Shown one piece after another: positions 23,271-26,894 of a DNA stretch of 37,286 nucleotides. This DNA comes from Escherichia coli. Its GTDB lineage: Bacteria; Pseudomonadota; Gammaproteobacteria; Enterobacterales; Enterobacteriaceae. Both the position numbers and the translations under genes were made by a program. Below the pieces are notes generated by a model, which was given only the letters and a program-made list of their open reading frames with translations, was not told where the DNA came from and searched no databases. Location of the stretch: NCBI RefSeq assembly GCF_003334815.1, contig NZ_QOWO01000036.1; one strand, given 5' to 3'. Within the stretch, counting starts at the first letter, position 1. Each line of letters opens with the position of its first letter.

Positions 23271-24446
23271 ATGCGTCTGTTTTCTATTCCTCCACCCACG
23301 CTACTGGCGGGGTTTCTGGCGGTATTAATTGGCTACGCCAGTTCAGCGGCAATAATCTGGCAAGCAGCGATTGTCGCCGGAGCCACCACTGCACAAATCT
23401 CTGGCTGGATGACGGCGCTGGGGCTGGCAATGGGCGTCAGTACGCTGACTCTGACATTATGGTATCGCGTACCTGTTCTCACCGCATGGTCAACGCCTGG
23501 CGCGGCTTTGTTGGTCACCGGATTGCAGGGACTAACACTTAACGAAGCCATCGGCGTTTTTATTGTCACCAACGCGCTAATAGTCCTCTGCGGCATAACG
23601 GGACTCTTTGCTCGTCTGATGCGCATTATTCCGCACTCGCTTGCGGCGGCAATGCTTGCCGGGATTTTATTACGCTTTGGTTTACAGGCGTTTGCCAGTC
23701 TGGACGGTCAATTTACGTTGTGTGGAAGTATGTTGCTGGTATGGCTGGCAACCAAGGCCGTTGCGCCGCGCTATGCGGTAATTGCCGCGATGATTATTGG
23801 GATCGTGATCGTCATCGCGCAAGGTGACGTTGTCACAACTGATGTTGTCTTTAAACCCGTTCTCCCCACTTATATTACCCCTGATTTTTCGTTTGCTCAC
23901 AGCCTGAGCGTTGCACTCCCCCTTTTTCTGGTGACGATGGCATCGCAAAACGCACCGGGTATCGCAGCAATGAAAGCAGCTGGATATTCGGCTCCTGTTT
24001 CGCCATTAATTGTATTTACTGGATTGCTGGCACTGGTTTTTTCCCCTTTCGGCGTTTATTCCGTCGGTATTGCGGCAATCACCGCGGCTATTTGCCAAAG
24101 CCCGGAAGCGCATCCGGATAAAGATCAACGTTGGCTGGCCGCTGCCGTTGCAGGCATTTTCTATTTGCTCGCAGGTCTGTTTGGTAGTGCCATTACCGGG
24201 ATGATGGCTGCCCTGCCCGTAAGTTGGATCCAGATGCTGGCAGGTCTGGCGCTGTTAAGTACCATCGGCGGCAGTTTGTATCAGGCGCTGCATAATGAGC
24301 GTGAGCGAGACGCGGCGGTGGTGGCATTTCTGGTAACGGCAAGTGGATTGACGCTGGTCGGGATTGGTTCTGCGTTTTGGGGATTAATTGCCGGAGGCGT
24401 TTGTTACGTGGTGTTGAATTTAATCGCTGACAGAAACCGATATTGA
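23271..24446 (+). CDS. ydcO: BenE-family (benzoate-transporter-like) membrane protein
   Basis: ATG at 23271 preceded by GAGGTG; 391 aa, highly hydrophobic. The ORF track extends 87 codons upstream across the ydcN start. Confidence 0.85.
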   Translation: MRLFSIPPPTLLAGFLAVLIGYASSAAIIWQAAIVAGATTAQISGWMTALGLAMGVSTLTLTLWYRVPVLTAWSTPGAALLVTGLQGLTLNEAIGVFIVTNALIVLCGITGLFARLMRIIPHSLAAAMLAGILLRFGLQAFASLDGQFTLCGSMLLVWLATKAVAPRYAVIAAMIIGIVIVIAQGDVVTTDVVFKPVLPTYITPDFSFAHSLSVALPLFLVTMASQNAPGIAAMKAAGYSAPVSPLIVFTGLLALVFSPFGVYSVGIAAITAAICQSPEAHPDKDQRWLAAAVAGIFYLLAGLFGSAITGMMAALPVSWIQMLAGLALLSTIGGSLYQALHNERERDAAVVAFLVTASGLTLVGIGSAFWGLIAGGVCYVVLNLIADRNRY

Positions 24447-26190
24447 CATCCTCCACGCCCTGAAGGACGTGGATCCCTGCTACGTTCAGGCTGTCGCCTG
24501 AATCATTTCGGTGGGTTCCTGCTTCAACGGGCGGCCTGACTGCACCATCTCTCCACAGGCAAGAACGGCGTGCCCCGCCGCTAAAATGTTGCGAGCGCCA
24601 TTTACATCGGCGTTCGCTGTATATCCACATACCTGGCATCTGAATTTACTTTGTGACAGGCGGTTCTCTTTCGCTGTATGACCACAGTACGCGCAACGCT
24701 GGCTTGTATACGCTGGCGGAACAGCAAGCACCTGACCGCCACGCCAGAGCTGCTTGTACGCAAGCTGGCGGCGCATTTCATACCAGCCCTGATCCAGTAT
24801 CGAACGGTTTAAACCTGATTTTGCCCGGACATTGCGCCCCGGCTGGCTGACCGTACCCGCTGCTGACTTTGACATGTTGCTGACCTTCAAATCCTCAATG
24901 ACTATCATTGCGTGGTTTTTGCTGACGGCCGTTGTGACTTTGTGAAGGTAGTCCCTGCGGATATTTGCGATACAGGAATGCAGTCGCTGTATTTTGCGTT
25001 TCTGCTTTTGCCAGTTGTTGCTGAATTTGACCTTGCGGCTTAACTGTCGCTGAAGTCTCGCCAGCTTCTTCTGGTTTTTCTGAAAACTGTTTACAGGCTC
25101 AAAGACTGTGCCATCTGACAGCGTGGCGAGTTTAGCCACGCCAGCATCCAGCCCGACCATTGATGCTGAAGGGTGAACCGGAGTTGATACTTCACTTTCT
25201 GTCTGAATACTGATGTACCACTTACCGCAGGACTGGCTGACAGTGACATTTTTCACAACACCCGTGACCTGACGGCTGTTCCGGTAGCGCATCCAGCCCA
25301 GTTTCGGCAGAAAAATACGGCTGTTTTCCTGATCGAGCTTAACGCCCTGCGGGTAGCGGAATGCATCATTCTGTCCCCGCTTTTTGAATCGGGGAAAAGC
25401 AGCCCGCTTCCGGAAGAAGTTTTTGTAAGCCCGCTCAAGGTCTTTCAGTGACTGTTGCAATGGCTGTGAGGGAGAATCTTTAAGCCATTGCGTTTCAGTG
25501 GCATTTTTCCACTCAACCAGCCAGGAAGCCATTTTCCCGTAAGGGATGTATTTATTACCGGCCTCATGATTCTCATTCTGACGTGCCAGAGCACGATTGA
25601 AAACGAAACGACATGCGCCTGCGAAGCGCCTCATTTCACACTCCTGTTGACCACCGGGTCTTAACTGGAATTTAAATGCCTGTAATCGTTTCACAGGTCA
25701 AATGATACTTTGGTCTGTGAAAAAAGAAACCGATATCCGGCGTGGAAGGCATTGTGTTTTCCTGATGCATGTTCACCTGCTCTTTGTCACCAGATACCGA
25801 CGCCAGATTTTTGACCATGACGCGACAGAAAAACTACGCACTTACTTTTCAAATGTATGTGCTGATTTTGAAGCTGAACTGGTTGAAATGGATGGCGAAC
25901 CAGATCACGTCCATTTGTTAATTAACTATCCTCCCAAACTGGCGATATCCAGTCTGGTAAACAGCCTCAAAGGCGTATCGGGTAGGTGACTGCGACGAGA
26001 TCGACCAGATATTGCATTCAGGTATTACTACAAAGGCGTTTTGTGGAGTCCTGGCTATTTTGCCAGTAGCTGCGGAGGTGCGCCAATATCCGTCATCCGC
26101 CAATACATTGAACAACAGCAAACACCTGGTCAGGTGGAAAACCGCGCCTTATATCCCCGCCCTGAAGGATGGGGTTTTACGGCGCACCGG
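24440..26190 (-). mobile_element. IS200/IS605-family insertion sequence (IS609-like), about 1.75 kb; boundaries approximate
   Basis: Divergent tnpB and tnpA; no terminal inverted repeats; subterminal hairpins at both ends share the 12-mer CGCCCTGAAGGA (24456-24467 and 26158-26169); sits between the ydcO stop and the ydcL terminator. Confidence 0.6.
24486..25694 (-). CDS. insQ: TnpB (IS609 OrfB; RuvC-like RNA-guided nuclease family)
   Basis: 402 aa from GTG 25694 (382 aa from ATG 25634, which has an AGGAG RBS). Conserved N-terminus [10 protein letters not shown]; RuvC-I GLDAGV, RuvC-II IEDL, zinc finger CAYCG...CQVCG, Ruv[13 protein letters not shown] all present. Confidence 0.8.
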
Positions 26191-26208
26191 ATAAAAAGCG
26201 CCATCTAA
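25702..26208 (+). pseudogene. IS200-type TnpA (Y1/HuH transposase) interrupted by one in-frame TGA
   Basis: ATG at 25702; 95 codons containing the HuH motif (PDHVHLLINYPP), then TGA at 25987-25989, then the same frame continues with ...LWSPGYFASSCGGAPISVIRQYIEQQ (conserved catalytic-Tyr region) to TAA at 26206-26208. Confidence 0.65.
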
Positions 26209-26217
26209 CGATGGCGC
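26193..26217 (-). terminator. Intrinsic terminator of ydcL
   Basis: Minus-strand RNA: GCGCCAUC-GUUA-GAUGGCGC followed by UUUUUAU, starting 9 nt after the ydcL stop. Confidence 0.6.
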
Positions 26218-26225
26218 GTCTGGAA

Positions 26226-26894
26226 CTACTTTTTGTTAACGTCAAACATGGTGGCATCGGTCGCCATGTCATCAATAACTTGTTTAATATTTTCGAAAGC
26301 CATTGGCGTACTTTCGTTATTCAGGTCTTTACCTTCGCCCTGACGAACGACTTTGATAACCGGTTTATTAGTCGCTGCATCAATCAGCTCACCTTCAAAA
26401 TAGAGGCGAGTATCCATGGTACGGTGGACTGTAGCCATTTGCGTCCCCGCAACCACTAATGCAACAGGAACCACTTCATAGAATTGCAGCCCTTCTTTGC
26501 TGGTATCTACACCGGTAATGGCCCCACGGAAAATCAGACTACGCGGCCCAGCGGTGGTAACCAGTGGTTTACGCTGCGCTATCGCTTCTTTCATTTCGGT
26601 GTTGGTATAGTTCAAAATTTTATCCAGAACTTTCTGCCCTACCTGGGTCGACGGTTTCGGTACCGGATAATAAGTGATTGGGTTCCAGACGATGCTGTCA
26701 TATTTGCTTTGATCAAAACTCGGGTCTACCCAACGTAAAACAGGTTTACCTGTAGCCGAGGTTGTTTCTTTTAAATCAGAGTAATTGTTTAAAAAACCAG
26801 AATATTTATCTGGCTGGGTGATTTTAGAGGCACAACCAGACAGAGCCAATAAGCCGCATAAAGCTGCAACTTTCGCAAATGATGTGGTACGCAT
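26226..26894 (-). CDS. ydcL: Lipoprotein
   Basis: 222 aa; signal peptide with lipobox (MRTTSFAKVAALCGLLALSGCAS). Confidence 0.85.
   Translation of the reverse strand: MRTTSFAKVAALCGLLALSGCASKITQPDKYSGFLNNYSDLKETTSATGKPVLRWVDPSFDQSKYDSIVWNPITYYPVPKPSTQVGQKVLDKILNYTNTEMKEAIAQRKPLVTTAGPRSLIFRGAITGVDTSKEGLQFYEVVPVALVVAGTQMATVHRTMDTRLYFEGELIDAATNKPVIKVVRQGEGKDLNNESTPMAFENIKQVIDDMATDATMFDVNKK

Follow-up and report, generated by a model that had tools for sequence, protein, structure and literature searches.

A resident, non-autonomous IS609 copy with a decayed tnpA and an intact tnpB between ydcO and ydcL of Escherichia coli

Which element separates the genes ydcO and ydcL in Escherichia coli, can it still move, and what does the state of its two genes tell about its history? 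We addressed these questions in a stretch of 37,286 nucleotides of E. coli DNA (contig NZ_QOWO01000036.1 of assembly GCF_003334815.1, hereafter the window). With a probability of about 90%, positions 24443-26190 represent a resident, non-autonomous copy of the insertion sequence (IS) IS609, a member of the IS200/IS605 family with divergent tnpA and tnpB genes, lying on the minus strand. The presence of IS609 at the ydcO-ydcL site is already known, and E. coli annotations list it as insQ together with a tnpA pseudogene. In comparison to IS609 of K-12, in which insQ/ydcM corresponds to tnpB and insP/yncK to the tnpA pseudogene, locus, genes and the internal stop of tnpA are the same and nothing material differs. 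In line with this, the segment 24100-26600 of the window matches strain 52F4 with 100% identity and three K-12 derivatives with 99.9%.

For the exact ends of the element we compared the occupied site with the empty one and with copies from three further chromosomal loci. Using window positions 24100-26600 as query against 5426 complete E. coli genomes, megablast gave three kinds of outcome: alignment of the whole stretch, copies sited elsewhere that align only over 24442/24443-26195, and ydcO directly abutting ydcL. The occupied allele is found in 3252 of the 5426 genomes (60%) and the empty allele in 2017 (~37%). The empty site, for which we use the locus L001, reads ...GACAGAAACCGATA/ATAAAAAGCGCCATC..., and the corresponding part of the window is ...GACAGAAACCGATA[TTGACATCC...GCGCACCGG]ATAAAAAGCGCCATC..., with the element in brackets; in a shorter view of the junction, ...ACCGATA/ATAAAAAGCGCC is replaced by ...ACCGATA[TTGACATCC...CACCGG]ATAAAAAGCGCC. 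This comparison defines an element of 1748 bp inserted without target duplication. The first-pass annotation, made from the letters of the window, had let the element start at 24440, which has to be corrected to 24443, and its other end, 26190 just before the ydcL terminator, turned out to be exact.

Independent support for these ends comes from the other IS609 loci. One of them lies in a TetR-family gene near ytfB, another in a DUF3251 gene near nrdR and the third in a sulfatase-like gene near yidI. The same ends are kept there: the flanks of the four independent sites part precisely at TTGAC... at one boundary and after ...CACCGG ATAA at the opposite one, and ATAA follows on the plus strand in all cases. 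Read on the minus strand, the element is therefore always placed 3' of TTAT and always terminates with ...GGATGTCAA. At the ydcO-ydcL site this tetranucleotide occupies 26194-26191, is present as a single copy in the empty site and belongs to the T-tract of the ydcL terminator. With regard to identity, the window element shares 97.8% of its nucleotides (39 differences in 1748 bp) with a copy in strain 116 (L002), whose tnpA is named by RefSeq as ‘IS200/IS605-like element IS609 family transposase’. Together with the Pfam domains and the empty site, this bears out the original assignment as an IS609-like element with ends of the IS200/IS605 type. Three hallmarks of this family are found, namely a Y1 TnpA in the intact allele, near-identical imperfect palindromes in a subterminal position on the same strand instead of terminal inverted repeats, and insertion 3' of a tetranucleotide without duplication.

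Both ends carry a subterminal hairpin (24452-24473 and 26155-26174), and each hairpin contains the 12-mer CGCCCTGAAGGA on the plus strand, at 24456-24467 and 26158-26169. A third site is absent from the window even if one mismatch is allowed; the shuffle expectation is a mean of 0.16 matches, and none of 100 shuffles reached two. The first-pass annotation had described this identical 12-mer as part of the loop region of both hairpins. Positions and common orientation hold, but the 12-mer is not confined to the loop, as it spans the upper stem together with the tetraloop, which is TTCA when read on the minus strand. An origin of these structures as repetitive extragenic palindromic or terminator hairpins unrelated to an IS was ruled out, because the hairpins move with the element to four loci. 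On the minus strand, the low-coordinate hairpin (24473-24452) reads TCCACGTCC-TTCA-GGGCGTGGA with nine pairs including one T.G wobble and folds with -9.3 kcal/mol as DNA (z = -2.4), and the high-coordinate hairpin (26174-26155) reads CCCCATCC-TTCA-GGGCGGGG. Read on the minus strand, the internal mismatch of either hairpin is a T.G wobble; the plus strand has C.A there. Because of this wobble and the position of TTAT we take the minus strand as the ‘top’ strand, which places the left end (LE) at the high coordinates and the right end (RE) at the low coordinates. The tip of the element, ...GGAGGATGTCAA, does not vary in tnpB homologues down to 62% amino acid identity, similarity halts exactly there, and compensatory changes are present in the RE stem.

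The LE hairpin of the window is weakened. A C-to-T change at 26170 turns one G-C pair into A.C on the active strand. The LE of L002, with C at this position, has a calculated fold of -18 kcal/mol (z = -4.05), and that of the window reaches -10.5 kcal/mol (z = -1.0). T at 26170 occurs in 14 of 14 copies from the ydcO-ydcL site and in none of five copies from other loci. A further position, 26149, touches an outer stem; in L002 this stem is GCGCCGTA/TACGGCGC, and the guide AAAA would be enclosed by it in an internal loop.

The arrangement of these ends follows IS608 of Helicobacter pylori. There, each cleavage site is recognised by a guide tetranucleotide 5' of the hairpin foot: the left cleavage site (CL) TTAC lies 19 nt 5' of the left foot and goes with the left guide (GL) AAAG, and the right cleavage site (CR) TCAA lies 10 nt 3' of the right foot and goes with the right guide (GR) GAAT (PMC3201880, PMC5934647). 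In IS609 the four nucleotides 5' of the hairpin feet, AAAA at LE and GGAT at RE, occupy the positions of these guides; CL is TTAT at a distance of 16 nt, and CR is likewise TCAA, 9 nt from the foot. GR thus differs from that of IS608 (GGAT vs GAAT), and five relatives have the combination GAAT/TCAA at their RE. A relative on plasmid pVE362 (95% identity) has GL AAAG beside a TTAC flank, as the IS608 pairing rule predicts, and is the single covarying example. Another, more distant relative (L020) was left out of this covariation test, since its LE hairpin differs and its element boundary is not fixable without an empty site.

IS608 and IS605 of H. pylori are the type elements of the IS200/IS605 family and share with IS609 a Y1 HUH TnpA plus a TnpB, subterminal imperfect palindromes on one strand and insertion 3' of a tetranucleotide without duplication. 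The resemblance of IS608 TnpA to IS609 TnpA is at the family level only (E = 7e-19 to the structure 2a6m), and the two genes are co-directional in IS608, whereas they diverge in IS609. The divergent order is also that of IS605. Overall, the anatomy of the element does not depart from the IS608 and ISDra2 models. Like other single-strand ‘peel and paste’ elements, it entered 3' of TTAT and without target duplication, at the point where the ydcO stop meets the T-tract of the ydcL terminator.

Concerning mobility, tnpA carries a lesion that the first-pass annotation had missed, as it had the change in the LE hairpin. Codon 96 of 143 is TGA in the window and TTA (Leu) in the intact L002 allele, so that the translation ...GVSGR*LRRD... 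stands against GVSGRLLRRD in the complete L002 protein of 143 aa. In addition, the natural stop TAG (26131-26133) has been altered to CAG, and RefSeq flags the gene with ‘internal stop’. The intact L002 TnpA is a Y1_Tnp/IS200 transposase: it matches Pfam Y1_Tnp with 2e-41 and NCBIfam transpos_IS200 with 145.7 bits (cutoff 55), and it resembles solved transposases of the IS200/IS608/ISDra2 type, 2a6m being the structure to which the above-mentioned E-value refers.

A very different picture emerges for tnpB. We compared 14 orthologous ydcO-ydcL copies including that of the window, with identities of 98.3-100%. In all 14, tnpB is intact, always 1209 bp long without stop or indel, and encodes 11 distinct proteins with a ratio of nonsynonymous to synonymous polymorphism (pN/pS) of 0.28. 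By contrast, the 432 bp of tnpA have been broken in at least six different ways, by three nonsense codons (E62*, Y76*, L96*) and three indels, all different, and its pN/pS is 0.77. Had tnpB been hit at the rate of tnpA, ~17 such lesions should have accumulated, or ~8 when only the secondary hits of tnpA are counted; the observed number is 0. Synonymous divergence amounts to 0.025-0.027 for tnpB, 0.031 for ydcO and 0.027 for ydcL, and the pN/pS of the flanking genes is 0.12 (ydcO) and 0.04 (ydcL). This pattern points to selection (or survivorship) in favour of an intact tnpB once mobility had been lost. Because some tnpA lesions recur in copies from elsewhere, repeated independent hits of this site by different IS609 variants were considered. 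They were rejected as the main explanation, since the change at 26170 and the loss of the tnpA stop are common to all 14 copies and lacking in the five copies from other loci.

The protein encoded by tnpB has the domains of the RNA-guided endonuclease TnpB. It contains the Pfam domains HTH_OrfB_IS605, OrfB_IS605 and Cas12f1-like TNB, scores 379.8 bits with NCBIfam guided_TnpB (cutoff 100), and its residues 3-376 match the ISDra2 TnpB structures 8bf8/8exa/8h1j with E = 2e-54. As in ISDra2 TnpB of Deinococcus radiodurans, the RuvC D-E-D triad (D183, E267, D363) and the zinc finger (C334/C337 and C353/C356) are conserved. TnpB of the K-12 type has K210 and A312, and the other orthologous copies have T210 and E312 in 12 of 12 cases (codons at ~25065-25067 and ~24759-24761); the residue of ISDra2 TnpB that aligns with E312 is the Glu of ‘QLEYK’. 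In the literature on IS609 TnpB and insQ we found no functional study of this protein; it was among nine purified candidates in one screen, the main text of which gives no result for it (PMC12781874). Close tnpB homologues (84-92% amino acid identity) also occur on the plasmids pESI of Salmonella, pPLS16B of Xylella taiwanensis and pBY68-1 of E. coli. These plasmids are conjugative or mobilizable, no tnpA is annotated within 900 bp according to the PLSDB gene tables, which are incomplete, and Xylella is a host far from the Enterobacteriaceae.

A TnpB of this kind would need a guide RNA, and the sequence around the RE offers a candidate. For ISDra2, an omega-RNA, also called reRNA, forms a structured region over the 3' end of tnpB that halts at RE, and the same is predicted for IS609. 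We aligned the last ~160 nt up to the RE tip of eight elements with TnpB identities of 62-100% (alignment A1), and in this alignment, too, similarity stops exactly at the conserved tip. A block of 45 nt, GCCTGTGGAGGGATGGTGCAGTCAGGCCGCCCGTTGAAGCAGGAAC (24516-24560, minus strand; alignment columns 41-86), is nearly invariant in homologues with 62-95% amino acid identity, and of the 44 pairs in the consensus structure six show compensatory changes, two of these in the RE hairpin. A permissive Rfam search (maximum E-value 1) returned only three matches, on the minus strand in 24433-24559, which we used as hints: HgcC (0.026), RAGATH-18 (0.083) and sot0042 (0.48). All of them remain under the gathering scores (22-25 bits vs 45-50; for sot0042 15.5 vs 88), so that the IS609 RNA is not a member of these families as curated in Rfam. 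The near-invariance of the 45-nt block and the sub-threshold RAGATH-18 match nevertheless suggest constraint at the RNA level inside the coding sequence.

Such RNAs are known from related systems. Sense overlapping transcript RNAs (sotRNAs) extend over the 3' ends of tnpB genes and have a UUCA tetraloop in common with HgcC, and a transcript overlapping the tnpB 3' end is present in RNA-seq data of E. coli K12 (PMC4615843); RAGATH-18-derived RNAs guide the TnpBs of IS607 elements (PMC11061315). The RE of IS609 resembles these TnpB-associated RNAs in its UUCA tetraloop hairpin, and the matches, weak as they are, have the correct strand and position. Taken together, the locus would make a complex of TnpB and a guide RNA, the guide being ~16 nt of flanking ydcO sequence, TATCGGTTTCTGTCAG. 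TTAT followed by TATCGGTTTCTGTCAG is the exact minus-strand sequence of the empty site L001. The complex would cut this sequence and hence the empty ydcO/ydcL allele, with TTAT as the predicted target-adjacent motif (TAM), and the cut would favour retention of the element or its re-copying via homologous repair. The predicted TAM differs from that of ISDra2, which is TTGAT. In the occupied chromosome the guide-matching DNA is preceded by RE and not by TTAT; therefore, no self-cleavage is expected. For activity of a TnpB-guide RNA complex at this locus we see roughly even odds.

With respect to expression, the start codons of tnpB (GTG at 25694, minus strand) and tnpA (ATG at 25702, plus strand) are divergent and separated by a spacer of 7 bp. 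Open reading frames and RefSeq agree on both starts, which confirms their close divergent arrangement as noticed before. From the 7-bp spacer it follows that each promoter would have to lie inside the other gene. A sigma-70 consensus scan of 24300-26350 found no promoter-like site near 25600-25800 on either strand, and the total number of sites did not exceed that in shuffled sequences. The coordinates of all features are summarized in Table 1.

Table 1. Features of the IS609 copy and its flanks (window coordinates; LE, left end; RE, right end; TAM, target-adjacent motif)
Feature	Coordinates	Strand	Remarks
IS609 element	24443..26190	-	Canonical orientation (tnpB forward): LE at 26190, RE at 24443
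Left end (LE)	26134..26190	-	Palindrome 26174-26155; guide AAAA 26178-26175; cleavage 16 nt 5' of hairpin foot
Right end (RE)	24443..24485	-	Palindrome 24473-24452; guide GGAT before it; TCAA 24446-24443; cleavage 9 nt 3' of foot
Target and left cleavage tetranucleotide TTAT (ATAA on +)	26191..26194	-	Outside the element; adjoins LE at four independent sites
tnpA pseudogene (Y1 HUH transposase)	25702..26133	+	TGA at 25987-25989; natural stop 26131-26133 now CAG
tnpB (insQ)	24486..25694	-	402 aa, GTG start, intact
Predicted guide-RNA (omega-RNA/reRNA) scaffold	24443..24600	-	Overlaps tnpB 3' end and RE
Predicted guide segment TATCGGTTTCTGTCAG	24427..24442	-	Outside the element; antisense to the last ydcO codons; deduced from the TnpB mechanism
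Predicted TnpB target	TTAT + TATCGGTTTCTGTCAG		TAM plus guide-matching sequence
Present ydcO stop TGA	24444..24446	+	From the IS609 right end (complement of TCAA)
ydcL intrinsic terminator hairpin	26198..26217	-	Flank, not element; terminator scan: 8-bp stem, then TTTTTATCCG

How are these findings to be read together? With its two ends, the TTAT target and tnpB in place, the copy might at first sight pass for an autonomous and currently active IS609 with a working divergent tnpA/tnpB pair. We consider this very improbable: the TGA at codon 96 lies upstream of the region of the catalytic Tyr (...IRQYIEQQ), the LE hairpin is weakened, and published work reports no transposition either. The IS609 transposase gene has been described as carrying a stop codon, with no transposition (PMC2891674), and of the 758 new IS insertions in mutation-accumulation lines of K-12, none was of IS609 (PMC5009759). 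Because of the nonsense codon in tnpA and the G-C pair lost from the LE hairpin, it is most unlikely that the window copy would move by its own means. Mobility appears to be lost from the site as a whole, since each of the 14 sampled lineages has a dead tnpA and the mutated LE hairpin. This leads to the tentative proposal of an immobile, old and vertically inherited element, whose tnpB and guide RNA would be kept by selection as a stand-alone ‘anti-loss’ or homing nuclease directed against the empty allele. That TnpB promotes transposon retention is an idea already in the literature.

Two other explanations have to be weighed. The whole element may be an inert relic with a non-functional TnpB and RNA, its intact reading frame reflecting limited time or sampling. 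The lineage-specific K210 and A312 at otherwise uniform positions of TnpB would fit a relic, as would the pN/pS of tnpB, which exceeds that of both flanking genes, and the lack of a promoter-like site in the sigma-70 scan. On the other hand, within the same 14 genomes the much shorter tnpA suffered six disabling events and tnpB none, tnpB is as diverged at synonymous sites as its neighbours and hence had time to decay, and all catalytic and zinc-binding residues are kept. We regard a relic as less likely than not. The other explanation assumes that TnpB and guide RNA were domesticated for a host function, e.g. RNA-guided or antisense control of ydcO, or defence. The persistence of tnpB next to a decaying tnpA and LE, the occupation of the locus in 60% of the complete genomes and a guide that is antisense to the 3' end of ydcO speak for it. 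Nevertheless, we consider domestication improbable: the RuvC triad is kept, unlike in known exapted regulators derived from TnpB, ~37% of the genomes do without the element, and the guide-matching DNA of the occupied locus is flanked by RE instead of a TTAT TAM. The TldR proteins, in which the RuvC triad is lost, are examples of such exapted regulators.

Several points also weigh against the proposal of a maintained anti-loss nuclease. Guide RNA and cleavage at this locus are predicted from the sequence, the covariation of guide and cleavage site rests on one relative, the Rfam matches fall short of their gathering scores, and the sigma-70 consensus scan did not find a promoter-like site for tnpA, tnpB or the guide RNA. 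With Ala at position 312, where the other orthologues and ISDra2 have Glu, the TnpB of the K-12 type could be impaired. The estimate of constraint is derived from 14 sequences only and ignores recombination. Finally, identical tnpA lesions across loci imply gene conversion between copies or trans-mobilisation of defective copies. The copies at the DUF3251 and the sulfatase-like site have tnpA lesions (Y76* and a 5-bp deletion; window 25813-25817 and 25929) that match those of some ydcO-ydcL copies, and both have an un-mutated LE hairpin.

Besides, the insertion has left a mark on its neighbour ydcO. IS609 splits the native ydcO stop TAA between its second and third bases: the empty allele reads ...CGA TA/A TAAAAAGCG, and the 3' end of the gene changes from ...AAC CGA TAA to ...AAC CGA TAT TGA. 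As the insertion lies inside the native stop, YdcO gained one C-terminal Tyr, and its C-terminus is ...DRNRY in the K-12 type (window 24441-24446) in comparison to ...DRNR in the empty allele (positions 640-644 of L001). The earlier description, in which the element sits wedged behind the ydcO stop and ahead of the ydcL terminator, is therefore nearly right without being exact; the sequence of the terminator hairpin is the same as in the empty site. The distance of 6 nt between the ydcO stop and the low-coordinate hairpin, which was also part of this description, is right when counted from the last base of the present TGA (24444-24446). In practice this means that the C-terminus and the stop of YdcO in strains of the K-12 type are products of the insertion. 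Two of the orthologous loci show further changes: in strain 2014C-3051 (L013), ydcO contains an in-frame insertion of 6 bp near window position 24295, and strain AH04 carries an IS1A just past ydcL (L010, 3272-3301).

With regard to general significance, the finding matters little, as the annotation, the transposase defect and the inactivity of IS609 are already public and the anatomy is close to the IS608 and ISDra2 models. What our data add to published IS609 are the exact ends, the split ydcO stop, the mutation of the LE hairpin and the population pattern. What remains of mild interest is only that tnpB has apparently been maintained over a long time at an immobile copy. K-12 carries an apparently intact TnpB gene together with a predictable TAM (TTAT) and guide, which could make it a convenient native system for tests of TnpB-mediated transposon retention. 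If the proposed role of TnpB holds true, K-12 would already contain a natural test case of TnpB-driven transposon retention uncoupled from transposition.

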